Origin: a virus
Taxonomy: Duplodnaviria; Heunggongvirae; Uroviricota; Caudoviricetes
Reading direction: 5' to 3' (one strand)
Virus record (IMG/VR): IMGVR_UViG_2751185957_000009
DNA: 13,336 nt
This document shows positions 1-13,336 of this stretch, in pieces (positions within the stretch are counted from its first letter, which is position 1; every line of letters begins with the position of its first letter). The position numbers were made by a program, and so were the translations under genes. A model generated the notes under the pieces. The model saw only the letters and a list, made by a program, of their open reading frames with translations. It was not told the DNA's origin and ran no database searches.

Positions 1-285
1 ACACGCCAGTTCGCCCGGATGTTGGGACTTGAACCGAAGAACACGGCGGTGCGGAGTCCGGAGAGTAACGGAATAGCAGAGAGCTTCGTGAAAACGATAA
101 AGCGTGACTACATCAGTATCATGCCCAAACCAGACGGGTTAACGGCAGCAAAGAACCTTGCAGAGGCGTTCGAGCATTATAACGAATGGCATCCGCATAG
201 TGCGCTGGGTTATCGCTCGCCACGGGAATATCTGCGGCAGCGGGCTTGTAATGGGTTAAGTGATAACAGATGTCTGGAAATATAG
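1..285 (+). CDS. insD: IS2 transposase OrfB (InsD) C-terminal fragment; 5' end outside window
   Basis: Reading frame is open from position 1. The translation ends ...[34 protein letters not shown], the conserved C-terminus of IS3-family integrase-core transposases ([12 protein letters not shown] motif). Confidence 0.8.
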
Positions 286-296
286 GGGCAAATCCA
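1..296 (+). mobile_element. IS2 (IS3 family) right-end fragment; the rest of the element lies left of the window
   Basis: Transposase OrfB C-terminus followed by a sequence I recognise as the IS2 right terminal repeat (GTTAAGTGATAACAGATGTCTGGAAATATAGGGGCAAATCCA), ending at 296. Confidence 0.8.
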
Positions 297-2510
297 GATC
301 CCACGATTAAAGGCGGGCGCTTAATCGTTGAAAAAGATGGGATTACCGTCCTTGCCGCTATCGAAAAGGGAGGATTACTGGAGGTTAAAGAGGGGGGATT
401 AGCGATTGCGGTAGATCAGAAAGCAGGCGGTGCTATTAAAGCAAGCACGCGGGTCATGGAGGCATTCGGAATAAACCGTCTCGGTCAGTTCGAAATCAAG
501 AATGGTATTGCTAACAATATGCTGTTGGAAAACGGCGGAAGTTTGCGAGTTGAAGAAAATGACTTCGCTTATAATACTACTGTAGATAGTGGCGGCTTAC
601 TGGAGGTTATGGATGGCGGGACTGCAACTGGCGTTGATAAAAAAGCAGGCGGAAAATTAATTGTCTCAACGAATGCGCTGGAAGTGAGTGGTACAAACAG
701 TAAAGGCCAATTTAGTATAAAAGATGGTGTGTCAAAAAATTATGAACTGGATGATGGTTCCGGGCTCATTGTTATGGAGGACACGCAGGCCATTGATACT
801 ATCCTTGATGAGCATGCCACTATGCAATCGCTGGGAAAGGATACTGGTACGAAAGTGCAGGCAAATGCGGTATATGATCTCGGTCGATCAGACCAGAATG
901 GAAGTATCACGTATTCCTCTAAAGCCATCTCTGAAAATATGGTTATCAACAATGGCCGCGCTAATGTCTGGGCTGGCACAATGGTTAACGTGTCAGTCAG
1001 AGGGAATGATGGCATTCTTGAGGTCATGAAGCCGCAAATAAATTATGCACCCGCTATGTTGGTGGGTAAGGTAGTGGTTTCTGAGGGCGCTTCTTTTAGA
1101 ACGCATGGTGCCGTGGATACCAGCAAAGCGGACGTTTCGCTCGAAAATAGCGTATGGGCCATCATTGCCGATATCACTACGACGAACCAAAACACCCTCC
1201 TCAACTTAGCCAACCTTGCGATGTCTGACGCAAATGTGATTATGATGGATGAGCCAGTGACTCGTTCATCAGTGACGGCAAGTGCGGAAAATTTCATTAC
1301 GTTGACCACCAATACCCTGTCGGGAAACGGCAATTTTTATATGCGTACCGATATGGCTAATCATCAGAGCGATCAGCTCAACGTCACCGGTCAGGCAACA
1401 GGTGATTTCAAAATATTCGTGACGGACACCGGTGCCAGCCCGGCAGCAGGAGATAGCCTTACACTGGTAACAACGGGCGGCGGTGATGCTGCATTTACGT
1501 TGGGCAATGCCGGAGGCGTTGTTGATATCGGTACGTATGAATATACCTTGCTGGATAATGGCAACCATAGCTGGAGTTTGGCAGAGAATCGCGCGCAAAT
1601 TACCCCTTCAACCACTGATGTGCTGAATATGGCGGCCGCACAACCGCTGGTATTTGATGCAGAACTGGACACCGTGCGTGAGCGTCTTGGTAGCGTAAAA
1701 AGCGTTAGTTACGATACGGCGATGTGGAGTTCGGCAATTAACACCCGCAACAACGTGACCACTGATGCGGGAGCTGGTTTTGAGCAAACATTGACGGGCC
1801 TGACGCTCGGTATCGATAGCCGTTTCTCCCGTGAAGAAAGCAGTACAATTCGCGGCTTGTTCTTTGGTTACTCTCATTCTGATATTGGTTTTGATCGCGG
1901 CGGAAAAGGTAATATCGATAGCTATACCCTGGGGGCTTATGCCGGTTGGGAGCATCAGAACGGTGCCTATGTTGATGGGGTGGTGAAAGTTGACCGTTTT
2001 GCCAACACCATCCATGGCAAGATGAGTAATGGGGCAACAGCGTTTGGCGATTACAATAGTAACGGCGCGGGTGCTCATGTTGAGAGCGGGTTCCGTTGGG
2101 TTGACGGATTGTGGAGTGTTAGACCCTATCTGGCCTTTACCGGCTTTACCACAGATGGTCAGGACTACACGTTATCAAACGGCATGCGCGCTGATGTGGG
2201 AAATACCCGGATATTACGCGCTGAAGCGGGAACGGCGGTAAGCTATCACATGGACCTGCAAAATGGTACGACGCTGGAACCCTGGCTGAAAGCCGCCGTA
2301 CGTCAGGAATACGCCGATTCTAACCATGTGAAAGTTAATGACGATGGCAAATTTAATAATGATGTGGCTGGAACCCCTGGCGTTTATCAGGCTGGGATAA
2401 GGTCATCGTTTACCCCGACGTTAAGCGGTCATTTGTCAGTCAGCTATGGCAATGGCGCAGGGGTAGAATCGCCGTGGAATACTCAGGCGGGAGTGGTCTG
2501 GACGTTCTGA
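270..2510 (+). CDS. Autotransporter (AIDA-I/Ag43-like) truncated by IS2 insertion; passenger beta-helix repeats plus C-terminal beta-barrel; probably a pseudogene
   Basis: 746-aa ORF whose first 9 codons, including the ATG, lie inside the IS2 terminal repeat. Passenger region has ~19-aa repeats (GGxLxVxxGGxAxxVDxKAGG). C-terminal ~270 aa has alternating aromatic/hydrophobic beta-strands and ends in WTF, typical of autotransporter barrels. No signal peptide or native N-terminus is visible. Confidence 0.75.
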
Positions 2511-2600: not shown

Positions 2601-3014
2601 CTTGGGATTTTTCACGAGAGTAGTTTAATTGAGCGTGTAACTTCATGATTTAAAATAATGTATATGATTCAACTTTTAAACCGTATAACCAAACGTATAA
2701 CTAAAATGATTTGCTGAAAAAATGCACAATTCAGGGTCGGATTTTCCCGGATGTTTAATTTATAAAAACGAAGCTGGTGGATGATCTGCGTGGTGATTTC
2801 CACCATTCAGAGCAGGGGCGGTCATCATGCCCATGCCATAACAAAAACCCCATATTCGTGGTTTTTCTGTGTTGTGGCTATTCTGCCGTTGCCGTGCTGG
2901 TGGATATTTCCGTTATGGGGATCACCATATCGGCATCATGCCCACCAGCCAGCGCAATTTTGCGCTTTGCTTTAAGTTCAGCAAGTTACCGCGCCGGATT
3001 ACGCCAATGGCTGT

Positions 3015-3194
3015 TTCCGAAAGAATCAACGGGTTAGGCCTTAATGGGCTGCGTGGTAATTATCAGCATCCAGAATATGACGGGTTATGTTTCCGACCTC
3101 CTCAATTTGAGGTTCCCGAAAATATCAACGGGTTAGGCTGGTTTCCCCGATGTTCGCCGCTGGCGAATTTCGAAAATATCAACCAGTTACCGCC
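3015..3194. repeat. Four direct repeats of an ~18-bp motif (AA(A/G)AAT(A/C)TCAACGGGTTAGG-like) with ~50-bp period
   Basis: Copies centred near 3024, 3073 (degenerate), 3119 and 3174. Largely non-coding; the last copy overlaps the 3' end of ORF 3187-3468. Confidence 0.5.
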
Positions 3195-3468
3195 GCAACC
3201 GCTCCGGCTTCTTCCAGTGGTATGTAATTTTCTCCGTTTCCCGATACAGTGCCACGCGGCGATTGTAGGCCAGCATTTCAAGAACGCGGATCCGTATGTT
3301 GCGCATATCCACATCATTAAGCTGGATACCATCACGGCGCATCACCTCAGCAACAACACGCGCATAATTTTCGGCTGTCACGCTGTCCGGCTGCGTGGCC
3401 TGTTCGTCAGTCTGCTGGCTGATTCCACCAGCACGGCGGATTAATCCCAGTATTTCGGCTTCTGTCAT
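3187..3468 (-). CDS. Hypothetical protein (93 aa) at the distal end of the satellite
   Basis: ORF with ATG preceded by AGGTG; non-repetitive, charged/helical composition. No family recognised. Confidence 0.45.
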   Translation of the reverse strand: MTEAEILGLIRRAGGISQQTDEQATQPDSVTAENYARVVAEVMRRDGIQLNDVDMRNIRIRVLEMLAYNRRVALYRETEKITYHWKKPERLRR

Positions 3469-3501
3469 TGTGCACCTATCGTTCTGATTGTCTGGTGTCG
3501 T

Positions 3502-3684
3502 CGGGTCCTTCCTGGAATTATGGACCCGTTACGGGGCGGCGACCTCGCGCGTTTTCACTATTTATGAAAATTTTTCGGGATCCATGTCCGGTTTCTCTAC
3601 AAGTTAACCATATGAAAAATATAAAAACATGCTTTCCATGAACCGGACATGCGCAAAAAACAGACACTAAAACCGGACATCGAA
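3502..3684 (+). other. Lambda-type cos site copy 1: cosN core plus cosB-like array of three AACCGGACAT sites around an AT-rich segment
   Basis: 3531-3578 (ACGGGGCGGCGACCTCGCGCGTTTTCACTATTTATGAAAATTTTTCGG) is near-identical to the lambda left end as I recall it (GGGCGGCGACCTCGCGGGTTTTCGCTATTTATGAAAATTTTCCGG); the 12-nt cohesive-end sequence GGGCGGCGACCT is at 3534-3545. AACCGGACAT occurs at 3641-3650 and 3671-3680 and inverted at 3584-3593. Confidence 0.75.
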
Positions 3685-3748
3685 CCAGTTAACCGAAAGT
3701 GTGCACAAATCACATGCATTGCTGCGAGTGATTAACAAGTTATCGGCT

Positions 3749-4183
3749 TTACTGTTCTGTATCGGCTGATTGCTCCATGCTGGCACGGCGAACGCTTACG
3801 GCATGACGCCACCCAGCCAGAAAGCCAGCCATTTTATTTCGTGCCTTGCTCACATCTTCCGGTGAATAGCCGTAAATCTGCAAACCTTCATCAAATCGAT
3901 GTTCTGTTTCTTCACTGGAGTACTCGTCACGCTCAGATGAAAGCAGCCTGGCAAACATAATTTTTTCCAGCGCACTGGTTTCTACGTGATATCTGATGGC
4001 CTCAAGACGGCTTTTACCTGAAGACCAAAGCAATGTATGCCCGATGTGATAACCGCCAGACTTTCCGCGATCCGCATTAAGATACGGCATCCCCTGTTTG
4101 GTCCATGCGCGAATAGTGGTTCTGTTAACCTTGAAATGTTCAGCTATTTCCTGCTGACTTACAAAACAAGCTTTATCAATCAT
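3749..4183 (-). CDS. Nu1-like small terminase subunit / packaging-specificity protein (144 aa, shorter than lambda gpNu1)
   Basis: The N-terminus (DKACFVSQQEIAEHFKVNRTTIRAWTKQGMPY) parallels the lambda gpNu1 winged-HTH region (NKKQLADIFGASIRTIQNWQEQGMPV). AAGGT Shine-Dalgarno 6 nt before the ATG. Lies between two cosN copies. Confidence 0.7.
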   Translation of the reverse strand: MIDKACFVSQQEIAEHFKVNRTTIRAWTKQGMPYLNADRGKSGGYHIGHTLLWSSGKSRLEAIRYHVETSALEKIMFARLLSSERDEYSSEETEHRFDEGLQIYGYSPEDVSKARNKMAGFLAGWRHAVSVRRASMEQSADTEQ

Positions 4184-4251
4184 AATGTTACCTTAACTGC
4201 ATGGTTAAATATTAATCAAGTGGTGGTGGTGTCACCTTCACGGAAAAACGT

Positions 4252-4316
4252 CATAAATAGCGAAAACCCGCGAGGTCGCCGCCCCGTAACGGGCCATAAT
4301 TCCAGGAAGGACCCGC
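4252..4316 (-). other. Lambda-type cosN copy 2, inverted relative to copy 1, upstream of the Nu1-like gene
   Basis: Reverse complement of 4252-4316 (GGGTCCTTCCTGGAATTATGGCCCGTTACGGGGCGGCGACCTCGCGGGTTTTCGCTATTTATGA) matches copy 1 over ~70 bp and matches lambda cosN including GGGCGGCGACCT (4274-4285 on the minus strand). No AACCGGACAT sites follow it. Confidence 0.75.
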
Positions 4317-4338
4317 AAAAAAGCCGGATTTCTCCGGC
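4317..4338 (-). terminator. Rho-independent terminator ending the capsid operon
   Basis: On the minus strand: GCCGGA-GAAA-TCCGGC followed by TTTTTT, 7 nt after the stop at 4345. Confidence 0.7.
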
Positions 4339-4344
4339 CTTGTC

Positions 4345-4758
4345 TCAGATGGTTTTCAGTATGCGATCGATGTCGCCGTCATCGCCTGGGTTTCTGCCAT
4401 CGTATGCCATGCCAGCTGATACGGTTTGTGGGCTGTGCATGTCCATAAAGTTTTCAAAGGCTGCGGTAAGCTCTGGTGCAACCTTCGGGCGTTCCTGCTC
4501 TATGGTCATGTTCAGGATGTTTTTAGCCGTATCAACATCGATACAAGGCACGTTTGCCATTGCACGCAACAGCGGCTGATAGTCTTTATGCTCATGAAGC
4601 GCCATAATCGCATCAGCGCGCGGCTTGTCCTGCTCTTCCAGTTTGTTGAGTTGATATACGGCCTCGTAGGTTGATAAACCTCTGTCAGCCATTGCCCGCG
4701 CTTCGGCTTTAAATTTACTCGCCAGCGGTAGCGCCATGATGCTTTCATTCGTTGCCAT
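4345..4758 (-). CDS. Hypothetical protein (137 aa), last gene of the capsid operon
   Basis: ORF with GGGGGA Shine-Dalgarno, starts 12 nt after the D-like stop. Acidic C-terminus. No family recognised. Confidence 0.55.
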   Translation of the reverse strand: MATNESIMALPLASKFKAEARAMADRGLSTYEAVYQLNKLEEQDKPRADAIMALHEHKDYQPLLRAMANVPCIDVDTAKNILNMTIEQERPKVAPELTAAFENFMDMHSPQTVSAGMAYDGRNPGDDGDIDRILKTI

Positions 4759-4770
4759 CGTTCCCCCTGC

Positions 4771-5106
4771 TTATCGGGCCAGCGGCTGAACGGATACGCC
4801 AGAACCCGCAAAGGCGGCGCATTTTTTCGCATCGGTGTCGACGCTCTCAGGCCAGTTAACGGCGGCAATATTGAATATCCCCGTCTTGTAACACTGTGCT
4901 GATTTCTGCTTTGACGTGTCCACGAGGTACGAAGTCAGATAAACAGCCTTGCCAGATTCCTGACCATCCCACGGCTTAAACTCGCCATTGTCCACCAGCA
5001 TCAGCGGGGTAAATTCCTGAATAACGCCAGCATCAGCGGCAAAATGTACCAGTGTCGTTGATACCTGCTGACTGCCTGCAAATAACTCAATATATGGAGT
5101 GTCCAT
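4771..5106 (-). CDS. Head decoration protein, lambda gpD homolog (111 aa)
   Basis: Similarity to lambda gpD as recalled: TPLMLVDNGEFKPWDG vs TPLMLDTSSRKLVAWDG; CYKTGIFNIAAVNWPESVDTDAKKCAAFAGSGVSV vs [35 protein letters not shown]. Same length class. GGGGGA Shine-Dalgarno. Confidence 0.85.
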   Translation of the reverse strand: MDTPYIELFAGSQQVSTTLVHFAADAGVIQEFTPLMLVDNGEFKPWDGQESGKAVYLTSYLVDTSKQKSAQCYKTGIFNIAAVNWPESVDTDAKKCAAFAGSGVSVQPLAR

Positions 5107-5117
5107 ATAATCCCCCG

Positions 5118-6173
5118 TTAACCAATTTTGACGGTAACAAATTTGCGAATATCTGCCGGAACCGGCTGCGGTGCGCTGTGTGTCTGCACGTACTCAATCG
5201 CCGGATCGCCGTCCTCAATCCAGTTTTTCGGGTAGTACATGTTTTGCGTTGCGCCCGTTCTTACCGCTTCCTGATCCATAATCGCACCATAGGCCACCAG
5301 CCCTTTATTGTTGGTGTTGCCCAGGACCAGCAAATCAGGCTCAAGGAAATATTTTTCGGTGCCGTCGCTGTCAGTGTATTTGCCGGAATAGACAATAAGA
5401 GCAATATCGCCCAGATAGCCTTTAAAGCTCACCACTTCGCCCAGGTTTTTACAGGCCATTTCTGCGGCGGATTCTGAACCACGGGAAAGATCGTACAGTT
5501 CACGGAATTTTTTAAAGCTGCGTAACGTGCGCCATACCTCAGCGCCCATAATCATGACGTTGGCGGGGCAACCTGCCTGATCTGCGTATAGTTCGATGTC
5601 ATAGATTGGATCGTAAATATCTTTATCATGCTCGGACCATTTTTTGCCGTCGGACTGCTCTATGATGTTTTTTTCCGGTATCTTCCAGTCGATTTCATAG
5701 CGTTCTATGCCTTCGCCCTCAATGATGTTTTTTCCGGTCGTTACCGCATTCACCGCCAGCCATTCCACGCGTGCCTTAATGGCGTTTATCTGGCGGCGCA
5801 TGTTGCCAGTAATCAGGCGCATACGGCGATAGGTAGGGTCGTTAAGCTGTGCCGGATCTTCTCCAGCCATGCGCATGATGGTTTTCGTTGGATCGATTTC
5901 GTGCTTTGGCTTCATGTAGCCAGGTTTGATTGTGCTGGTTTCGTACCCTTTATCGCGCTGAACCTGGCTACCCACCATAGGCGAACAAAACGCCGACATG
6001 GTGACTTCTTCAATGTCCAGGGTATCCAGCATGATGTTTTGCGTGCTGAATGTCGCCACGTTCGGGAAAAACAGCGTGGTAAACAGAGGGCTGAATTTAA
6101 AATCCGCAATATCCCCGCGATTCAGGTACATAAAAAGCTGGTTAGTGTTAAGTGCCGTTGCTTTGCCTGCCAT
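5118..6173 (-). CDS. Major capsid protein, lambda gpE homolog (351 aa)
   Basis: Conserved blocks shared with lambda gpE along the whole length: DFKFSPLFTTLFF, IKPGYMKPKHEIDP, GEDPAQLNDPTYRRMRLI, VSFKGYLGDIALIVYSG, YPKNWIEDGDPAIEY. Roughly 45-50% identity by eye. Confidence 0.9.
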   Translation of the reverse strand: MAGKATALNTNQLFMYLNRGDIADFKFSPLFTTLFFPNVATFSTQNIMLDTLDIEEVTMSAFCSPMVGSQVQRDKGYETSTIKPGYMKPKHEIDPTKTIMRMAGEDPAQLNDPTYRRMRLITGNMRRQINAIKARVEWLAVNAVTTGKNIIEGEGIERYEIDWKIPEKNIIEQSDGKKWSEHDKDIYDPIYDIELYADQAGCPANVMIMGAEVWRTLRSFKKFRELYDLSRGSESAAEMACKNLGEVVSFKGYLGDIALIVYSGKYTDSDGTEKYFLEPDLLVLGNTNNKGLVAYGAIMDQEAVRTGATQNMYYPKNWIEDGDPAIEYVQTHSAPQPVPADIRKFVTVKIG

Positions 6174-6379
6174 TATTCACCCCCATAATTTTTATGCATC
6201 CCAAGCGCCGCAAGTAAATAAGAGCGTACAAGTGAACCTATCGACGGCTCCGGCGTCATCAGCGGATCCAGTCCAGCCGCCACGCCAGCCTCATAGTTTT
6301 TTTTGTGGCGCTGCTTGAGCACCTCCACGATTTCGGGGCTTATGTACACCGAAACACCGCCTTTTTTCTCTTCAGCCAT
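6173..6379 (-). CDS. Hypothetical small protein (68 aa), first gene of the capsid operon, coupled to the E-like gene
   Basis: Its stop overlaps the E-like start (TAATG). AGGAA Shine-Dalgarno. No family recognised. Confidence 0.55.
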   Translation of the reverse strand: MAEEKKGGVSVYISPEIVEVLKQRHKKNYEAGVAAGLDPLMTPEPSIGSLVRSYLLAALGMHKNYGGE

Positions 6380-6407
6380 AGTAAGAAATTCCTCTTCGAC
6401 TAAAAAA

Positions 6408-6463
6408 ATCAGGACTGGATGTTTATCCAGTCCTGATTATAATCAGAATTGCATTTTATGCAA
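6408..6463 (-). promoter_or_regulatory. Putative sigma70 promoter (TTGCAT-16-TATAAT) overlapped by a perfect 13-bp inverted repeat, upstream of the capsid operon
   Basis: Minus strand: -35 TTGCAT (6463-6458), -10 TATAAT (6441-6436). Palindrome ATCAGGACTGGAT-GTTT-ATCCAGTCCTGAT at 6408-6437, followed on the minus strand by seven T. A second small palindrome TTGCATTTTATGCAA at 6449-6463. Confidence 0.5.
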
Positions 6464-6540
6464 TAATATTGAGTTATGTTGCAAATTATGAAATGATTAT
6501 CCCGATCACGAACGCCAGTGCATCCAAAAACCTCATATGC

Positions 6541-6609
6541 AAAAGCCCGATAAGAACCCTCTGACCTTATCGGGCTTTTTTGGGCGCAAAAAAGCCGGAT
6601 TGCTCCGGC
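6541..6609 (-). terminator. Tandem rho-independent terminators after the 74-aa gene
   Basis: Hairpin 1 (6545-6575): 9-bp stem GCCCGATAA/TTATCGGGC flanked by A4 and T6, so bidirectional. Hairpin 2 (6594-6609): GCCGGA-TTGC-TCCGGC with an A6 run, which is a T-run on the minus strand. Confidence 0.65.
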
Positions 6610-6629
6610 TATGTGTGCTGTGTGCTGGA

Positions 6630-6854
6630 TCAGTCTCTGATCTCTTTCAGAAATTCTATCAATGCATCTATCTGTTCAGGATTTACCGCCAGCATTTCAC
6701 CGGATAGAGCACATCTCACAAAACCATGCTGATCCTTTTCAATCAGTGCGCCCGTCTCCAGGAATGCGCGGTAATCATTGATGCTCATCGTCTCCATGTT
6801 GTCAGCATGGTATTTATCACGCTGTTTTAATATCTCATCAAATTTCATCGGCAT
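6630..6854 (-). CDS. Hypothetical small protein (74 aa), stand-alone gene bracketed by terminators
   Basis: ORF with its own upstream intergenic region (6855-6950), terminators on both sides. No family recognised. Confidence 0.5.
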   Translation of the reverse strand: MPMKFDEILKQRDKYHADNMETMSINDYRAFLETGALIEKDQHGFVRCALSGEMLAVNPEQIDALIEFLKEIRD

Positions 6855-6950
6855 TGTTTTTTTCCTCTGTTGTGTCTGTTTGTTTCAGATAGTAACTATG
6901 CCTGACCGTGACGAAAACCCGGTAATGCGCCATACCGTTTCAACTGGTGC

Positions 6951-6972
6951 AAAAAAGCCGGATTTCTCCGGC
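6951..6972 (-). terminator. Rho-independent terminator after the PerC-like gene
   Basis: AAAAAA-GCCGGA-TTTC-TCCGGC, reading hairpin then T6 on the minus strand, 8 nt after the stop at 6980. Same module as 4317-4338. Confidence 0.7.
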
Positions 6973-6979
6973 TGTTTGA

Positions 6980-7252
6980 TTAGCTGTCCTGGTAATTGCG
7001 CCATATTTCATCACCAGCACCATCTATACCCATTTCGGCATAAGTGCGATCGACTGCCTTTTTCAGGTCTCCGAAATTATCCGGCGGCTCCGGTGCCCTC
7101 TGTGCCTTCCTTGAACATTCCAGCCGTCGCATCGTGATGTGATGCCGTTCCTTGTCTGTCTCCACCAGCTGCATGACTTCACCCCATCGCGCCGCCGCCC
7201 TCCGGTAAAAGCCTTTCGCCTCCAGTTCCTCCGCTATGCGGTCATGTACCAT
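6980..7252 (-). CDS. PerC-family transcriptional regulator homolog (about 90 aa; an upstream in-frame start at 7372 is possible)
   Basis: Motif IAEELEAKGFYRRAAARWGEVM matches the PerC-family signature as I recall it (AExLExxGxWRRAAxRW). The ATG at 7252 is preceded by GAGGGGG and lies 11 nt after the SSB stop. Family assignment from memory. Confidence 0.6.
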   Translation of the reverse strand: MVHDRIAEELEAKGFYRRAAARWGEVMQLVETDKERHHITMRRLECSRKAQRAPEPPDNFGDLKKAVDRTYAEMGIDGAGDEIWRNYQDS

Positions 7253-7262
7253 CGTCACCCCC

Positions 7263-7673
7263 TCAGAACGAAATATCATCACCGTAAGGGTCATCGCCTC
7301 CCGCTGGTGGCTGATTACCCTGTGTGCCTGTGGTTTTGCGTCTGTTCCCGCCTGGACGTGCCGCGCGGGCACTGATTACGCTGTCTGCGATAACCTGCCA
7401 GCCCTGCCGCGTTTCTCCGTTCTGTCCGGTCCACTGGCTTACCTGCATCGTGCCGGATACGCTGGCAACATCGCCTTTTTGATGTTTAGCCAGGAAGTCG
7501 GCCTGTTTGCCAAATGCGATGACCGATAACCATAACGTCGCCTGTCCGTCCTGTGCCTGGCTGCATGGCAAAGATACCGCCATACGCGCCAGCGTCATCG
7601 GTGTGCCCTTGCTGGTCTGTTTTACCTGCGGGTCGTCCACCAGCCGCCCGTAAGCGGCTATCTGTGCCGTCAT
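7263..7673 (-). CDS. ssb: Single-stranded DNA-binding protein (136 aa)
   Basis: OB-fold pattern (GRLVDDP..., WLSVIAFGKQADFLAKHQKGDVASVSGTMQVSQWTGQNGETRQGWQVIADSV), Gly/Pro-rich linker and acidic C-terminal tip DDPYGDDISF resembling the SSB DDDIPF tail. Strong GGAGAGGTGG Shine-Dalgarno. Confidence 0.8.
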   Translation of the reverse strand: MTAQIAAYGRLVDDPQVKQTSKGTPMTLARMAVSLPCSQAQDGQATLWLSVIAFGKQADFLAKHQKGDVASVSGTMQVSQWTGQNGETRQGWQVIADSVISARAARPGGNRRKTTGTQGNQPPAGGDDPYGDDISF

Positions 7674-7921
7674 AATTCCACCTCTCCGGTTTTAACGTTG
7701 ATGGTTGTTACCTGTTCCGCTTCGGCAATCTCCCGTTCTGTCAGCGTGGCAAAGTTTGCCGCCGCCGTGGTCATGAATGCGCTTATCAGGTCGGGATGTT
7801 CCTTCGCGTATCCTTCCCGCGTGTGGCGGTCTATCGTTCTGATTGCCACCTTTAAGGTGTGCTCAGTCATGTCTAACGCTTTATATTTTGGCTCTGTTCT
7901 GTCTCTGCGTTTTTGGGTCAT
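7670..7921 (-). CDS. Hypothetical protein (83 aa), coupled to ssb
   Basis: Its stop overlaps the ssb start (ATGA). ATG at 7921 with GAGAGG Shine-Dalgarno. The longer form in the ORF track would start at a GTG inside the iteron array. Confidence 0.5.
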   Translation of the reverse strand: MTQKRRDRTEPKYKALDMTEHTLKVAIRTIDRHTREGYAKEHPDLISAFMTTAAANFATLTEREIAEAEQVTTINVKTGEVEL

Positions 7922-7930
7922 TTCTCGCAA

Positions 7931-8123
7931 CCTCTCACTTTTTCGCCTCACTTTTTCAAGCGTCTCACTTCGTCGCAGTTGGGATTTTCGGTTTTTCTAT
8001 GTGTGTGTTTTATAAGTATTTTTTTACCCCTCACTTTTGAGGATGTATACAGGTCGAAAAGTGAGGGAGAGCGGGCTAATTTTGGCCCTCTTTCTATCCC
8101 CCTCGCTTTTGCTCCTCACTTTT
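7931..8123. repeat. Putative replication origin: at least six CCTCACTTTT iterons around an AT-rich spacer, directly 3' of the replicase gene
   Basis: Iterons at 7934, 7948, 7964 (variant), 8029, 8101 (variant) and 8114, plus one inverted copy at 8057-8066. AT-rich stretch 7991-8027. The last iteron overlaps the replicase stop codon. Confidence 0.65.
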
Positions 8124-9522
8124 ATAGCGGCGCTACATCATCCCCATCGATACTAATAACCCCATCTTTTTCCAGCTTGTACAGCCAGCGCCGGAAGTTT
8201 TTCATTTCATACCCCAGCTTTTTCATGTCATCACGTAACAGCGGGATCGTGCACTTGTCGCCGTTCTGTGTGCGTGAACGGATGCACCCCCATAGCGCGG
8301 TATGGTTTTCCGTCTTGTTCCCTGCCTCCTCGATGCGCTCCAGTTCAACAGGAGGGCGCGGATCATCCACCACCACCAGCGACGTGATTAATTCACCGTC
8401 AGCGTCGGTAAAAAGCTCCACCACGCGTAAGTCATATGCGGCTTCTTTGAGTTCCTCCGCGTCCTTCATTTTGGTGCATGAGATAACCAGCGCTTTGCTT
8501 CCTGCGTCCTCCCTGCGTATCCGGTATTCAGCATCCAGCGAAGCACGAAATGCACTGGAACCGCGCGCGCCTTTCGTCTCATCCTTGCCGGAATGGTGAA
8601 CCACCAGCACCGTGGCCCCTGTGCGTCGTTTCAGTTCGTCACAACCACGGATAAACGCCCCCATATCACGGGAATCATTTTCATCATTCCCACCAAAGCA
8701 ACGCGCCAGCGTATCCAGAATAATCATGCGTACAGGTTTACCCGTTTCCCGCTCCACCTGACGGGCAGCGATAACCATTTCATCAACATCAAGCGGGGCA
8801 GCCGGAAAGATGGGGCGGTTTACCAGATACAGATTTTTCACCTGCTCATCGTGCACAACCTCCCAGGCTTTTACACGACGCGGAACGCCGATACCGCCTT
8901 CACCAACCACATAGAGAACCGCACCATGTGCAACCCTGCGGCCTCCCCACTGGCGACCAGTGGCAACATGGCACGCCCACGATCCGGCAAGGAATGATTT
9001 ATAGGACCCGCTAGCCCCGTATATGCTGCATAGCGATACCGCCGGAATAATCCCCTTAACCACGTAATCCAGTTGCGTGTCGTATCCGGTAGATCCAACG
9101 CTCATCGGTAGCGTGGTTTTTCGCTGGTGGTTTTTTTCTTCCACCGGCTCTTTCCCGCGCACCCGTTCCAGGTATTCGCGCCAGTTCTCCCGCATATGGC
9201 TGTGCATCCCTTCGGGGTAATAATTCGCATCAGTTACACCCGCCGCCGCCAGCTTGTGCGCAATGGCATTAATATTTGATGGCCTGATGTGGCCTGCCTT
9301 GTACAGCCGGACACAATAGCGCCCCTCGTCGATGATTCTCAGGTCTGCCAGTTCATCCAGTTGATCATCAGCCAGCACAACGGGAGGCACATTATCGCCA
9401 GCCAGTCGCCCGTCCTGTTCCTGCCACTGTTTTGCATGTGCCCAGGCATCACTACCCGCAAAAATAATGACTTCGGTCATCTTGTCGTAAGGCTGTTTTT
9501 TTAAGTTCGGTGCGCTTTTCAT
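8122..9522 (-). CDS. Replication protein with RecA-like AAA_25 ATPase domain (satellite replicase/helicase, 466 aa)
   Basis: P-loop-like YGASGSYKSF, Walker B-like MIILD, and the signature VLVVHHSGKDETKGARGSSAFRASLDAEY typical of AAA_25 replicative ATPases. Its start overlaps the upstream ORF stop (ATGA). Confidence 0.8.
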   Translation of the reverse strand: MKSAPNLKKQPYDKMTEVIIFAGSDAWAHAKQWQEQDGRLAGDNVPPVVLADDQLDELADLRIIDEGRYCVRLYKAGHIRPSNINAIAHKLAAAGVTDANYYPEGMHSHMRENWREYLERVRGKEPVEEKNHQRKTTLPMSVGSTGYDTQLDYVVKGIIPAVSLCSIYGASGSYKSFLAGSWACHVATGRQWGGRRVAHGAVLYVVGEGGIGVPRRVKAWEVVHDEQVKNLYLVNRPIFPAAPLDVDEMVIAARQVERETGKPVRMIILDTLARCFGGNDENDSRDMGAFIRGCDELKRRTGATVLVVHHSGKDETKGARGSSAFRASLDAEYRIRREDAGSKALVISCTKMKDAEELKEAAYDLRVVELFTDADGELITSLVVVDDPRPPVELERIEEAGNKTENHTALWGCIRSRTQNGDKCTIPLLRDDMKKLGYEMKNFRRWLYKLEKDGVISIDGDDVAPL

Positions 9523-9818
9523 TTCTTGCCCCTGAATCCGTTAATCATGGTTTTCAGCTTCTGGATGTTTGCCCGTGCCCTGGCGTTGCTGGTGGGCACG
9601 TTATGCGGCGCGGTCTGTACCAGAGAAAAATCACGCCGGAACTGATAAACAGGCATCACGCAATCATATTCGTAACCTTCACGGCGGTAGGTTACACGCC
9701 GTTCTTCCACGCCCTTAATCATTACCGTGCCGCCGTACTGGTCGCGGTAAATATCACCGCGCGTAAATTTAGGGTGAGTGTTGCCACTGGCAGTTAAGCC
9801 AGAATATTTAAGTTTCAT
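9519..9818 (-). CDS. Hypothetical protein (99 aa), coupled to the replicase
   Basis: ORF with GGAGA Shine-Dalgarno; its stop overlaps the replicase ATG. Confidence 0.5.
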   Translation of the reverse strand: MKLKYSGLTASGNTHPKFTRGDIYRDQYGGTVMIKGVEERRVTYRREGYEYDCVMPVYQFRRDFSLVQTAPHNVPTSNARARANIQKLKTMINGFRGKK

Positions 9819-9823
9819 TATTT

Positions 9824-10057
9824 TTATTCTCCGGTGTGCTGTTCTTTATATCTGTCGTGCAATAGATCTATTTCTTGCAGTTCCATTATTACAGGCTCAA
9901 GAAGCGTTATTAATGCCGTGGCAATTCTTGATTTTTGTTTGTCGCGTTCATTGTCGCCAAGTGTTTCAAGCCATATGCGCAATATTTCCAGCATGTTTTC
10001 ACTGTGAGAAAGTGCAAGAAATGCGCGGTCTATTGTTTCGTGGTAAATATCACGCAT
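9824..10057 (-). CDS. Hypothetical small protein (77 aa)
   Basis: ORF whose ATG overlaps the upstream stop (ATGCGTGA). Helical, acidic composition. Confidence 0.45.
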   Translation of the reverse strand: MRDIYHETIDRAFLALSHSENMLEILRIWLETLGDNERDKQKSRIATALITLLEPVIMELQEIDLLHDRYKEQHTGE

Positions 10058-10283
10058 GGCTTACATCCTCAGGAAATTTTCTTCTGTAACGCGCCTCTGC
10101 CACATATTCCGCATAATCGGCGGCGATATTCAGTACATCAAGCCCCGTTGATTTATATTCTCTCGTGGAAAGTAAGAAAAAAGCCGCTCTAATAAGTTCT
10201 GGCATTGACGAAAGCGCATCAGCCGCATCATCAGGAACGCCGGGAAATTCCTGTTTCAGGGAATTAAAACGATCATCACGCAT
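10050..10283 (-). CDS. Hypothetical small protein (77 aa from ATG at 10283; the ORF track extends to 10331)
   Basis: ATG at 10283 follows a G8 run acting as Shine-Dalgarno and overlaps the upstream stop (ATGCGTGA). Confidence 0.45.
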   Translation of the reverse strand: MRDDRFNSLKQEFPGVPDDAADALSSMPELIRAAFFLLSTREYKSTGLDVLNIAADYAEYVAEARYRRKFPEDVSHA

Positions 10284-10497
10284 AACCCCCCCCATTTTCA
10301 CAATCAGCAACAAGAATATTTTTAGCGTCATTCAGCGACCGCGTTGCGATGTATCGGATACATTCCAGGGCGAACTGTGTCCGGTCTTTCTGTTCTTCTC
10401 CCTGCGCAAGCTCTGCAGTGCATTCAATATCAATAAGCGCGTGCATCAGCGTAGTGAGTGCGGCGGCTGCTGCGTTCGGTGTGGTTTTATTGTGCAT
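10276..10497 (-). CDS. Hypothetical small protein (73 aa from ATG at 10497; the ORF track extends to 10539)
   Basis: ATG at 10497 with GGGGGA Shine-Dalgarno, overlapping the end of the upstream ORF by 11 nt. Confidence 0.45.
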   Translation of the reverse strand: MHNKTTPNAAAAALTTLMHALIDIECTAELAQGEEQKDRTQFALECIRYIATRSLNDAKNILVADCENGGGYA

Positions 10498-10687
10498 AGG
10501 TTTCCCCCTGACGAATACGGGCGGCGAATACAGCAACACAACCGGACGGGCAACGGCTACGCGCTTCGCGTTCCGTCCAGGCGGTTACGTGGATGATTTG
10601 AGATTCTCCGGCACTCAGGGCCAGAAAACGCCACACAAAGGCCGTTTGTGTGTGTACAAGGTGTGGTATATGATTTACGGCAACCAT
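10487..10687 (-). CDS. Hypothetical small protein (66 aa), first gene of the leftward replication operon
   Basis: ATG at 10687 preceded by AGGAG; the longer ORF (to 10786) would run through the palindromic operators, so the short form is preferred. Confidence 0.4.
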   Translation of the reverse strand: MVAVNHIPHLVHTQTAFVWRFLALSAGESQIIHVTAWTEREARSRCPSGCVAVFAARIRQGETYAQ

Positions 10688-10773
10688 AACGGCTCCTAGT
10701 TTACGTTGTTGGTTAGAAGCCCTGCGAGTGGTAATGACACTTGCGGGGCTTTGCTTTTTTAAGTGCTCTTGTG

Positions 10774-10824
10774 TTAAGGTGGCCACCTAACAATGGAAAG
10801 GCTAATTCAATAGGTGACCACTTG
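10774..10824. promoter_or_regulatory. Divergent control region with two palindromic operator-like sites (GGTGGCCACC and GGTGACCAC)
   Basis: TTAAGGTGGCCACCTAA at 10774-10790 and ATAGGTGACCACTTG at 10811-10824, centres ~35 bp apart, between the divergently oriented operons. An imperfect hairpin plus T-run lies at 10718-10760. Confidence 0.5.
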
Positions 10825-10887
10825 TCAATAATCAAACGCGATAAAAGCCCTAAAGGGGACGGGCAATCCCCACAATTCAGAATGCGA

Positions 10888-11013
10888 ATTTCTCCAGAGC
10901 TAAAAGAGCAATTCGACAAAGAAGCACAGAGCGACGGCATAAGCCTAGCCAACTGGCTTAAAGAGTTGGGGCGCACTGAACTAAAGCGGCGCGGCATAGA
11001 ACCCAAAGGATAA
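10888..11013 (+). CDS. Putative ribbon-helix-helix (Arc/CopG-like) DNA-binding protein (42 aa from ATG; the ORF track starts at TTG 10741)
   Basis: MRISPELKEQFDKEAQSDGISLANWLKELGRTEL fits the beta-strand, helix, G-loop, helix pattern of RHH proteins. Start uncertain; weak ribosome-binding site. Confidence 0.4.
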   Translation: MSPELKEQFDKEAQSDGISLANWLKELGRTELKRRGIEPKG

Positions 11014-11070
11014 AAACTATCAGCGCCGTGGTGTGAGGTATTACGGCGCATTGCTATGCAGGACAACACA

Positions 11071-11244
11071 ATGACCGATAAAGAATTGACCAAAACATTA
11101 TCACCGGCACGGAAAAGACGGCGCAGAAAGATAGAGCATGAATCAGAAAGATTCGCACCATGTGCTTTTGCCCTTGAGCAATTCCTTAAAGAGTATAGGG
11201 AAAAGCGCTCATTGCAGGTATGGCAACGAACTGAACCAGACTGA
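11071..11244 (+). CDS. Hypothetical small basic protein (57 aa; alternative start at 11056)
   Basis: ORF with AGGA 8 nt before the ATG at 11071; contains an RKRRRRK basic patch. Convergent with alpA. Confidence 0.35.
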   Translation: MTDKELTKTLSPARKRRRRKIEHESERFAPCAFALEQFLKEYREKRSLQVWQRTEPD

Positions 11245-11337
11245 TTGCATTGCCCACCAGCCTGATAGCGGCTATCATCCCCGTGCTTATGTTTGGGATC
11301 ATATACACATAAGGCGCAGCGGGTTAATTGTTCAGAA

Positions 11338-11366
11338 AGGCGGCTCCATATCGGGGCCGCTTTTTT
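11338..11366. terminator. Terminator-like hairpin between the convergent plus-strand module and alpA
   Basis: GGCGGC...GCCGC stem followed by TTTTTT on the plus strand, 27 nt after the alpA stop on the other strand. Confidence 0.4.
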
Positions 11367-11392
11367 CGTGTTTGTCATATCTGTGATACCCG

Positions 11393-11599
11393 TTAAGCAG
11401 CCGTTCCGCGTGCTTCCTGTTCGCGTTCTTTCTGCCAGGCCAACACATCATCCTCATACCATCCGCGACGGCGTAAACCAACGCGAAAACCCTGCGGAAA
11501 TTCTCCGGCGTTGATCATGCTTTGCAGCGTGCTGTCTGCCTTGATGTGGATAATTTTTTTTACTTCCTGGCGAAAGATAATTTTTCTGATTGCTTCCAT
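11393..11599 (-). CDS. alpA: AlpA-family transcriptional regulator / excisionase-like protein (68 aa)
   Basis: Motif RQEVKKIIHIKADSTLQSMINAGEFPQGFRVGLRRRGWYEDDVLAWQKER matches the AlpA (Phage_AlpA) pattern as recalled (EV..I.....STLY.....G.FP..IKLG.R.V.W...EV..W). AAGGT Shine-Dalgarno. Confidence 0.8.
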   Translation of the reverse strand: MEAIRKIIFRQEVKKIIHIKADSTLQSMINAGEFPQGFRVGLRRRGWYEDDVLAWQKEREQEARGTAA

Positions 11600-11731
11600 C
11601 GTGATTTACCTTGTGAATCCGGTGTATTCCGGTGACAAATACGGTAAATCATCGGATATGGGTAAAAACAGTTCCCACCGTTTTTAAACGGTATACACCG
11701 TTTTTATATTGATGATTTGAAATGGAATTAT

Positions 11732-11754
11732 AAAAAAAGCGGCATTTCTGCCGC
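11732..11754 (-). terminator. Rho-independent terminator after ORF 11766-12017
   Basis: AAAAAAA-GCGGCA-TTTC-TGCCGC: 6-bp stem, TTTC loop, T7 on the minus strand, 12 nt after the stop. Confidence 0.65.
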
Positions 11755-11765
11755 TTCCAGGATTG

Positions 11766-12017
11766 TTACCGCCATTTTTTGGGCCTGCCTCCGATCTTCA
11801 TAGATGCCGGACGTACGACCTTATCAATACTTACCGCCAGATTTCTGGAAGCGCCACGGGATACCAGAAAATCTACTACCTGTTTTTTTGATGGGGCCGT
11901 CGTTCTGTCCTCCGGATCGTAGGTTGACCAAAATTCATGCTGAACCATCAGGGCCAGTTGCAGCCCGTCGCAATTGCATCTGATATTTTTTTGCATCTTA
12001 ACGGTTTCATGTTTCAC
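11766..12017 (-). CDS. Hypothetical small protein next to the integrase, possibly an excisionase-like DNA-binding protein (start uncertain)
   Basis: ORF between int and alpA with basic C-terminal tail KIGGRPKKWR. The track start is a GTG; in-frame ATGs at 11996 and 11948 lack good ribosome-binding sites. Confidence 0.4.
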   Translation of the reverse strand: MKHETVKMQKNIRCNCDGLQLALMVQHEFWSTYDPEDRTTAPSKKQVVDFLVSRGASRNLAVSIDKVVRPASMKIGGRPKKWR

Positions 12018-12094
12018 GGCCTTGTCGTTAAATTTGATGCAATTATACGACGGTTTTACATGGTTTTCGTAGTTTTTACTGGTTTTCTGTACAG

Positions 12095-13336
12095 CTACAC
12101 GGCTCGGATACCCCTTTTACCACTGGCGAGGGTTACGCCCGTCGCCGCAGCCTCGACAAATTCGCCCCACCAGCGCATCAGCACGATGCGTTTTTCTATG
12201 TAGTTGCTCCGGTTGTATGCCCGTCTAACTTCGTTGGTGTCGACGTGGGCAAGTGCCGCCTCTATTACGTCCGGCTCGAATCCTTCCTCGTTCGCTGCTG
12301 TGCTGAATATGGCGCGTAATCCATGAGACACCAGCACGCCAGCGAATCCCATACGCCGCAATGCTGCGTTAGCTGTCTGGCTGTTCATCGGCTGCTGTGG
12401 GTCTTTCAGACTTGGGAAAACGTAATTGCGGTGGTGGCTGATTGGTTTCATGGCCTCCAGCACCGCCATAGCCTGACCGGAAAGCGGGATAACGTGATCC
12501 CTGCGCATCTTCATGCGTCCGGCAGGTATCGTCCATTGCTTCGCGTCCAGGTTGATTTCATCCCACCGCGTTGATGACGCTTCGGCGGGACGGGTTACGG
12601 TCAGTAACTGCCATTCAATCAGTAATCTGGTCTGCCGTTCTGTTGCCGATACTGATAAAGCCTGCATAAGCTCCGGCAGCTGTTCGGGGCGGATTGTTGG
12701 CATATGTTTTTTTACAGGTGAGGGAAACGCCTTACGCACATTCATAGCCGGATTGGCATCAATCAGCCCACTGTTGGCGGCGTAATCCATTACCTCATTA
12801 ACGCGCTGTAAAACCCGCTTGAGTGTTTCCAGGTTGCCGCGCTCCTTGATGGGTGTAAGCACTTCAACGAACCTTCGGGCGGTGAGGGTATCTATTGGCG
12901 TGTTGCCGATGAACGGGAATACATATTTATCCAGCGAACGCCAGATGTCTTTAATCGTGTTGGGGGCCAGATTCTGGCTGATTTTCACCTGGTACCATGC
13001 CGCCGCCACATTTTCGAACGTGTTCCCTTGTCTTCGGGCCTCTGCCTCTCGTTTTTTCTTCTCATGGCCCTGCGGGTCAGTTCCGGCACTGATTAACGCT
13101 CTGTACTCGCTACGGCGTTTTCTGGCATCAGCCAGGGAAACATCATCAAGCGATCCAAAACTCAGCAATATTCTTTTTTTGTCCGATGGCCGGTAGTAGG
13201 AAAATCGCCAGAGTTTTGATCCGGACGGTTTGACCAGGAGAAAAAGCCCTCCGCCGTCCTGTAGGGTGTATTCCTTTTCCGCTGGTCTGGCTGCTTTGAT
13301 CTGCACCGTGGTTAATGGGGGTGTTTTTCTCGCCAT
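12095..13336 (-). CDS. int: P4-type tyrosine integrase (413 aa)
   Basis: N-terminal arm-binding domain typical of P4-like integrases (LTTVQIKAARPAEKEYTLQDGGGLFLLVKPSGSKLWRFSYY), C-terminal catalytic region with HGLR and the tyrosine in RRAYNRSNY. Start codon is the last three bases of the window. Confidence 0.9.
   Translation of the reverse strand: MARKTPPLTTVQIKAARPAEKEYTLQDGGGLFLLVKPSGSKLWRFSYYRPSDKKRILLSFGSLDDVSLADARKRRSEYRALISAGTDPQGHEKKKREAEARRQGNTFENVAAAWYQVKISQNLAPNTIKDIWRSLDKYVFPFIGNTPIDTLTARRFVEVLTPIKERGNLETLKRVLQRVNEVMDYAANSGLIDANPAMNVRKAFPSPVKKHMPTIRPEQLPELMQALSVSATERQTRLLIEWQLLTVTRPAEASSTRWDEINLDAKQWTIPAGRMKMRRDHVIPLSGQAMAVLEAMKPISHHRNYVFPSLKDPQQPMNSQTANAALRRMGFAGVLVSHGLRAIFSTAANEEGFEPDVIEAALAHVDTNEVRRAYNRSNYIEKRIVLMRWWGEFVEAAATGVTLASGKRGIRAV

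Follow-up and report, generated by a model that had tools for sequence, protein, structure and literature searches.

EcCICFT073 is the experimentally tested prototype of a family of cos-type phage-inducible chromosomal islands (PICIs) of Gram-negative bacteria (GN-PICIs), and its description already includes a 'putative capsid protein (c1499)' and a 'head decoration protein (c1500)' (Fillol-Salom 2018, PMC6092414); the supplement of that paper lists c1498 (68 aa), c1499 ('capsid', 351 aa), c1500 (111 aa) and c1501 (137 aa, unannotated). The island has two cosN sequences, both functional, and is mobilised by lambda and phi80; lambda plaques are not restored by deletion of c1499 or c1500, so that interference persists (PMC6092414). 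A 2019 Molecular Cell paper (Fillol-Salom 2019) identified c1503 as RppA (144 residues), found that only c1503 blocks lambda when genes downstream of the origin are expressed singly, and reported that Rpp binds the helper small terminase subunit (TerS) and redirects it to the island cos. EcCICFT073 DNA is reported to enter heads of phage size, probably with some three copies joined in a concatemer (PMC6092414; Dokland review; capsid-forming PICI paper). Of 29 reference GN-PICIs, 21 have a major capsid gene, which is more common among them than any other late gene and can be dispensed with for transfer (PMC10111431). In the literature we found no function assigned to c1498-c1501. Here we describe an island carried by a 13,336 bp stretch of DNA, IMG/VR virus record IMGVR_UViG_2751185957_000009 (the window), and compare it with these systems.

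We are highly confident that this region is a cos-type, Rpp-carrying GN-PICI of the EcCICFT073 family, inserted at the 3' end of tRNA-Pro (proL) between yejM and yejO/narP. Its main open reading frames (ORFs) all lie on the minus strand in an almost entirely one-directional block that begins at about 2613 and extends to the window's final base, and with a further ~220 bp beyond the window end the total island length is ~10.9 kb, within the 10-15 kb or so expected of this type of PICI. When EcCICFT073 was located in the CFT073 chromosome, the two islands proved to share the order int, alpA, DUF4222, rep, ori, ssb, perC, c1498, c1499, c1500, c1501, cos, rppA, cos, c1504. The features listed by the first-pass annotation, which was made from the sequence alone (integrase, AlpA, AAA_25 replicase, iterons, single-strand DNA-binding protein, gpE, gpD and cosN), were all confirmed by domain and sequence searches, with the genes on the minus strand, and its reading of the element as a helper-dependent PICI-like satellite is borne out by the collinearity with EcCICFT073 and the identical RppA. 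It had also held that Gram-negative PICIs lack structural genes, which is contradicted by the 21 of 29 reference islands with a capsid gene and by the description of c1499 and c1500, and that the architecture is an undescribed intermediate; since EcCICFT073 has the same, published gene order, that claim of novelty fails, and a published family with exactly this gene set does exist. Profile searches with Pfam, NCBIfam and PHROG matched no portal, protease, large terminase or tail family in any window ORF, as the first-pass annotation had stated. Nor did profile searches match a head-tail connector or a TerS, large terminase (TerL) or HNH family of the type found in capsid-forming PICIs (cf-PICIs) in any ORF, and no lysis family was matched among the island ORFs in domain and PHROG profile searches.

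By sequence comparison this island is a mosaic, and a new member of a family that is already known and has been characterised by experiment. Its integrase (Int), AlpA, orf137 and orf93c are shared with EcCIATCC25922 and its gene order is collinear with EcCICFT073, which identifies it as a mosaic of published islands: by sequence, both ends resemble EcCIATCC25922, the rppA cassette resembles EcCICFT073, and the RepA-type replicase resembles that of islands such as L001, a relative at the same site. The packaging region comprises the following features.

3187..3468, minus strand: orf93c (93 aa), c1504 homologue by position, 91% identical to CFT073 and 100% to EcCIATCC25922; phrog_1561
3502..3567, plus strand: cos core, downstream copy, with an exact cosN at 3534-3545; inverted relative to the genes, pointing back toward rppA
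4183-3749, minus strand: rppA (redirecting phage packaging), 144 aa, helix-turn-helix protein, 100% amino acid identity to CFT073 RppA (c1503)
4251..4315, minus strand: cos core, upstream copy, with an exact cosN GGGCGGCGACCT at 4284-4273, in the lambda-like order cosN-cosB-rpp

The rppA gene is without a single nucleotide difference from its CFT073 counterpart, and its product matches RppC (PDB 6HLK) at E=5.3e-31. Its resemblance to lambda Nu1 is limited to the N-terminal winged helix-turn-helix region (30% identity, E=5e-5); the first-pass label 'Nu1-like' is apt for that region, but the protein is RppA. Likewise the lambda-type cosN was correctly recognised as an exact match, but the lambda cohesive-end sequence GGGCGGCGACCT occurs in two exact copies in the window, not one. 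These copies lie within a 66 bp inverted repeat flanking rppA (3502-3567 / 4315-4251) whose two arms are 95% identical, an inverted arrangement also present in CFT073 and L001. Both match lambda for ~34-45 nt beyond cosN and then diverge, a pattern that fits the published non-phage cosB. The slot between the cos cores was compared across islands (window 3502-4315; L001 6345-7284; L006 12946-13488; L007 10678-11235). In L001 it holds a 180-aa protein that aligns with lambda Nu1 along its entire length at 36% identity, in EcCIATCC25922 a 180-aa protein annotated 'terminase small subunit' takes the place of RppA, and a Salmonella PICI carries a Phage_Nu1 protein in the same slot. Different proteins thus occupy this position in otherwise similar islands, and the slot looks like an exchangeable cassette for packaging specificity.

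Immediately upstream of the cos region in the direction of the genes lies the block orf68-MCP-Dec-orf137, comprising a major capsid protein (MCP) gene, a decoration protein (Dec) gene and two small genes, together with hairpins at its two sides.

6438-6407, minus strand: strong terminator-like hairpin of 14 pairs, upstream of orf68 and the capsid block
6173..6379, minus strand: orf68 (c1498 homologue), its stop overlapping the MCP start
6173-5118, minus strand: MCP, gpE homologue (c1499); Phage_cap_E 3.4e-51
5106-4771, minus strand: head decoration protein Dec, gpD homologue (c1500); HDPD 6.3e-17
4345..4758, minus strand: orf137 (c1501 homologue); phrog_1999 4.4e-65, related to the C-terminal domain of the lambda Nu3/gpC scaffold
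4315..4338, minus strand: hairpin GCCGGAGAAATCCGGC of terminator type with a run of T behind it, directly following orf137; it occurs three times

The lengths of orf68, MCP, Dec and orf137 exactly equal those published for c1498-c1501. The MCP is 44% identical to lambda gpE, 96% to c1499 and 95% to its EcCIATCC25922 counterpart, and its match to PDB 3BQW ('putative capsid protein of prophage') has E=1.2e-231; the corresponding identities of Dec are 36% to lambda gpD, 96% to c1500 and 99% to EcCIATCC25922. Pairwise dN/dS ranged between 0.09 and 0.17 for MCP and between 0.11 and 0.20 for Dec, values low enough that the capsid block is no decaying remnant; orf68-MCP-Dec-orf137 is under purifying selection. 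This 2,035-bp block is present in 598 of 5,426 complete E. coli genomes, with coverage of at least 80% in 592 of them, and its identity at the best place is 90-99% in 597 of the 598 records and 81% in the remaining one.

Among 50,697 phage genome records, none encodes an MCP more than 47% identical to that of the window, hence the capsid block was not recently taken from a helper. Relatives of the MCP at 54-68% identity occur in Salmonella, Edwardsiella and Serratia, and in all three loci inspected, one from each genus, a P4-type integrase, AlpA and a primase are followed by MCP and HDPD genes, which makes them PICI backbones. The orf68 gene is conserved in E. coli, Salmonella and Edwardsiella PICIs, its stop overlapping the MCP start in all three; a small ORF upstream of MCP was called in the Salmonella and Edwardsiella loci and not in the Serratia locus. 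Within the island E precedes D, the reverse of the D-E order of phages. By these comparisons the PICI MCP belongs to a satellite-specific lineage. The Edwardsiella tarda contig MBLV01000009.1 (L008, 1-14626) carries its related PICI inside the portal gene of a lambdoid prophage, a helper-embedded PICI in which the satellite MCP-Dec and prophage Dec-MCP pairs lie 3 kb apart in opposite gene order.

A 24-nt hairpin, GCCGGAG(A/C)AATCCGGCTTTTTTGC, occurs three times on the minus strand of the window (4315-4338, 6586-6609 and 6949-6972), with none expected by chance, and each copy directly follows a gene or module end: orf137, orf74 and perC, respectively. Terminator-like hairpins thus enclose the capsid block on both sides, a hint that its control may involve read-through or antitermination.

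The fourth gene of the block, orf137, is 93% identical to its CFT073 counterpart and 100% identical to that of EcCIATCC25922. Its homology to the C-terminal domain of Nu3 is likely but not proven. Residues 117-200 of lambda Nu3 match phrog_1999, the family of orf137, at 2.7e-26, and a metagenomic bridge protein (P0042, 195 aa) aligns with the orf137 alignment (hhalign probability 96.6%, E=5e-10) and with Nu3 (BLASTP 2.8e-15, 47% identity). Two copies of the IM-x-L...A-x-x-L motif seen in Nu3 are present in orf137, which also matches the C-terminal end of a 'head maturation protease' family, phrog_53, at 2.7e-9. Direct comparison is weak: hhalign of a shallow orf137 alignment against Nu3 aligned the expected region at E=0.014 and 3% probability, and BLASTP and phmmer searches of orf137 directly against lambda Nu3, gpC and FI found nothing significant, so that the link is carried by the PHROG profiles and the one bridging protein. 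Pfam and NCBIfam gave no match for orf137, orf68 or orf93c; an exhaustive HMMER search for orf137 found 9 relatives only; tblastn against the 50,697 phage genomes found no match; and the gene was not found in the inspected Salmonella, Edwardsiella and Serratia islands. A single-sequence AlphaFold model of orf137 (pLDDT 42, helices only) was too poor for use. The name given by NCBI to close relatives, 'phage head-tail connector protein', is probably wrong; we rejected the connector role when no connector family matched, and an FI-like chaperone role was rejected as well, lambda FI falling in other PHROGs.

The way in which such an island would spread has been worked out experimentally for the prototype EcCICFT073, and we infer from sequence identity that it extends to the window island. 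A lambdoid helper phage would trigger alpA expression, Int together with AlpA would excise the island, and its own Rep would fire the iteron origin just downstream of the rep gene, forming concatemers. RppA would then bind the helper small terminase gpNu1, and the heterocomplex would ignore phage cosB and recognise island cosB, so that the helper large terminase could cut the lambda-type cosN of the island and package multimers of the ~10.9-kb unit into helper-made heads, which would be joined to helper tails while packaging of helper DNA is blocked. Four copies of 10.9 kb amount to 43.8 kb, or 90% of the lambda genome, and multimer packaging therefore fits. Several points weigh against this picture, or against assigning the island to the family as firmly as we do. 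The mobility of the window copy is taken over from a prototype that lambda and phi80 mobilise, and the copy itself has no known helper phage; the C-terminal part of the replicase is of AAA_25/RepA type, as opposed to the D5-type primase of that tested prototype; attR retains only 8 nt of the tRNA fragment and attL falls outside the window; and the Rpp mechanism leaves the role of the capsid block unexplained.

That role is where other explanations have to be weighed. The comparisons above make orf68-MCP-Dec-orf137 a conserved, selected, satellite-specific set of shell genes, and a selected gpE/gpD pair must do something, although in published tests neither transfer by lambda or phi80 nor interference with lambda required it. 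With natural helpers, as opposed to the laboratory pairs with lambda and phi80, the block might work as a shell kit, giving satellite-made or chimeric heads on a helper portal, perhaps of altered size or stability; we regard this as doubtful, but if it were true, classical Rpp-type PICIs would be partly capsid-forming and would constitute a functional bridge to cf-PICIs. A stronger proposal, and a distinctly unlikely one, is that the island represents a new intermediate class of satellite that builds its own small shell from gpE and gpD homologues and takes portal, protease, terminase and tails from the helper. It would account for MCP and Dec genes that are intact, widespread and under purifying selection, for an MCP/Dec lineage that accompanies PICI backbones in four genera when phage MCPs reach 47% identity at most, and for the Nu3-like scaffold-domain protein that accompanies the pair in E. 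coli, and volume scaling suggests that a lambda-type shell of T=3 size would be right for a genome of 10.9 kb. Yet the architecture is that of the published prototype, hence no new class; EcCICFT073 DNA is reported in phage-sized capsids; deletion of c1499 or c1500 leaves interference in place and only c1503 inhibited lambda when genes were singly expressed; and the capsid gene is dispensable for transfer (PMC10111431). The small-capsid strategy proposed by the first-pass annotation is accordingly unsupported, with the prototype reported as multimers in full-size helper heads and its capsid gene expendable.

Two explanations by decay fare worse. The lambda-type MCP, Dec and cosN next to a P4-type integrase might suggest two unrelated remnants, the head region of a decayed lambdoid prophage lying beside a P4-like island. 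To this reading we give next to no credence: 592 genomes, as well as PICIs that have been named and mobilised in experiments, show the same contiguous order, the MCP shares no more than 47% identity with that of any of the 50,697 phage records, the order is E-D against the D-E of phages, the ORFs are intact with low dN/dS, and the 10.9 kb are absent as one unit from the empty K-12 site. A cf-PICI that has degraded through loss of its portal, protease, connectors and large terminase is also very improbable, even though other strains carry modules with a ClpP protease/MCP fusion on a similar backbone at the same site (H22/H23, described below). The capsid protein of the window is of gpE type with a gpD partner and not a protease-MCP fusion, the compact block keeps its length across several genera and hundreds of genomes, its intergenic stretches being free of gene fragments, and packaging specificity from Rpp plus cos is the published 'classical' strategy. 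The reading as an Rpp-type PICI of the EcCICFT073 family, with selected shell genes, is the one we retain.

The boundaries of the island were examined on the side that the window covers.

19-2510, plus strand: yejO 3' part, autotransporter gene, flanking the island
2613..2621, no strand assigned: attR junction, where homology to the empty K-12 proL-yejO site ends, followed by a damaged copy of the tRNA-Pro 3' end, CACGAGAG
2681..2702, minus strand: GTTATACG-type repeats, a sequence with which yejM-luxR PICIs are listed as their att site; L001 has comparable repeats upstream of int

A tRNA scan of the window found no tRNA, tRNA-Pro sitting beyond its end; Rfam at gathering thresholds returned zero matches in the window; and a search of the window for a direct repeat of the tRNA 3' end gave chance 9-10-mers only. 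With no usable direct repeat in the window, the junction on the yejO side was defined by alignment with the empty K-12 site, from which the whole 10.9 kb is missing as a single unit; of the tRNA 3' end only CACGAGAG is kept, and a damaged attR tRNA fragment of this kind is typical of PICIs (PMC10111431). This moves the start of the island from 3015, as first annotated, to about 2613, some 400 bp further out. On the other side, attL and tRNA-Pro would lie ~220 bp past the window end, judging from the relatives L001 and L006, and in related E. coli chromosomes the island is found between tRNA-Pro (proL, next to yejM) and yejO/narP. The check proposed by the first-pass annotation, for the same gene order beside a tRNA gene, found it at this tRNA-Pro site, for example in EcCIATCC25922. 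The proL/yejM-narP site matches the 'yejM-luxR' att site of Table S1 in Fillol-Salom 2018 (PMC6092414), and the GTTATACG-type repeats are possibly integrase arm sites.

The flanking yejO gene is split into two ORFs in different frames (19-285 and 270-2510) and is probably a pseudogene, as in K-12 (IS5 insertion) and L001 (internal stop). At the same proL-yejO site, E. coli OkiPb01698 and OkiPb01682 (H22/H23) carry islands with a similar int/RepA backbone and a ClpP-protease/MCP fusion, a head module of cf-PICI type, so that two head-gene strategies alternate on one backbone and one att site.

The replication module occupies the centre of the island.

7263-7673 (read 7673-7263), minus strand: single-strand DNA-binding protein; SSB 1.7e-16, 98% identical to CFT073
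7670..7951, minus strand: orf93b; phrog_1231
7933..8123, no strand assigned: predicted replication origin, an AT-rich stretch with a cluster of AAAAGTGAGG iterons on either side, immediately behind the rep stop
9522-8122, minus strand: replication protein, AAA_25/RepA-type helicase; AAA_25 2.3e-43
9519..9818, minus strand: DUF4222 protein, conserved partner upstream of rep, 94% identical to its EcCICFT073 counterpart

Six copies of AAAAGTGAGG lie within 7933-8123, and the window total is 7 matches where 0.81 would be expected; the published layout of GN-PICIs likewise places an iteron origin just 3' of rep. The replicase is 62% identical to the EcCICFT073 primase over the N-terminal 125 aa only, and 80% identical to that of L001 over its full length. 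Compared with L003 (10242-11996), the replicase (8122-9522) is chimeric: beyond the first 125 aa the helicase is unrelated and the iteron set is different. These relationships suggest a shared N-terminal domain, perhaps partnered by DUF4222, joined to a swappable initiator/origin module.

The remaining genes are concerned with integration and regulation or are small early ORFs.

6630..6854, minus strand: orf74; phrog_1957, not in EcCICFT073, present in L001
6980..7372, minus strand: PerC-family regulator; PerC 1.2e-42, relatives annotated from an internal start (~90 aa)
9824..10786, minus strand: small early ORFs, including an Icd-like protein at 10487-10786
10741..11244, plus strand: two divergent small ORFs, one Arc/YlcI-like (90 aa) and one of 62 aa (phrog_21027)
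11599-11393, minus strand: AlpA-like helix-turn-helix regulator/excisionase; PHROG 'excisionase and transcriptional regulator' 5.5e-7
11766..12017, minus strand: orf83, conserved beside int in EcCIATCC25922, 99% identical
13336-12095, minus strand: P4-type tyrosine integrase, full length, with Arm-DNA-bind_3, Phage_int_M and Phage_integrase domains; its start codon begins at the last base of the window

The integrase matches NCBIfam PRK09692 (8e-166, residues 1-413) and is 98% identical to the EcCIATCC25922 Int and 24% identical to the EcCICFT073 integrase. The AlpA-like protein scores E=0.0035 against Pfam AlpA, under the family cut-off; it is 100% identical to the EcCIATCC25922 regulator and diverged from EcCICFT073 AlpA. 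A 221-aa ORF on the minus strand (10713-11378) overlaps both small plus-strand ORFs, so that either strand may be the coding one here, and its relatives are annotated as a partial Icd-like pseudogene.

As a finding in itself the island matters little, since it adds a further mosaic copy, at a catalogued att site, to a satellite family that has been well studied. The family, the architecture and the att site were already known; the selection on the block, its E. coli distribution, the satellite-specific MCP lineage and the relation between orf137 and Nu3 are new here. The island corrects a misconception, in that classical E. coli PICIs usually carry a capsid and a decoration gene, and it sharpens a known puzzle: purifying selection maintains a gpE/gpD pair in the PICIs of four or more enterobacterial genera, and published tests of the pair have all been negative. 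By tying c1501 to the C-terminal domain of the Nu3 scaffold, the annotation also makes an assembly role of the block easier to test.

Set against known systems, the window island departs from the lambdoid phage order Nu1-A-W-B-C-Nu3-D-E, its own order being E-D-Nu3-like-cos-rpp. The satellite phage P4 shares with it a P4-type integrase, an Icd-like gene, a helper-matched cos and helper dependence for the virion, but the cosN of the window island is lambda-type and not P2-type and its specificity comes from Rpp; Sid, Psu, Delta and the alpha-type primase-helicase had no Pfam or PHROG match in the island. The Ccm of SaPIbov5 offers a parallel in that a satellite carries a homologue of the helper MCP together with a helper-type cos; it makes small capsids, however, and belongs to an unrelated Gram-positive lineage, whereas no small capsids were observed for the E. 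coli family, whose MCP gene is dispensable. The cf-PICIs of the EcCIEDL933 type have the same kind of int-alpA-rep backbone, some of the same att sites and an encoded capsid protein, but they build small capsids of their own and have genes for portal, protease, connectors, HNH, TerS and TerL, whereas the window island has only MCP, Dec and the scaffold-like domain. Closer still are EcCIATCC25922, EcCIED1a.1 and EcCI11128, PICIs listed at yejM-luxR (Table S1, PMC6092414), whose att site beside tRNA-Pro is that of the window island. EcCIATCC25922, with which the comparison at this site was made, has the same gene order but differs in its primase-type replicase and in having no PerC gene annotated. 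EcCICFT073 differs in its att site (roxA-phoQ there, proL-yejO here), in being without orf74, and in its diverging Int, AlpA and replicase C-terminal part. It agrees with the window island in the order shared from DUF4222 to the last gene, in size class, in the iterons 3' of rep, in MCP, Dec, c1501 and c1504 homologues that are 91-96% identical, and in the inverted pair of lambda-type cosN around rpp.

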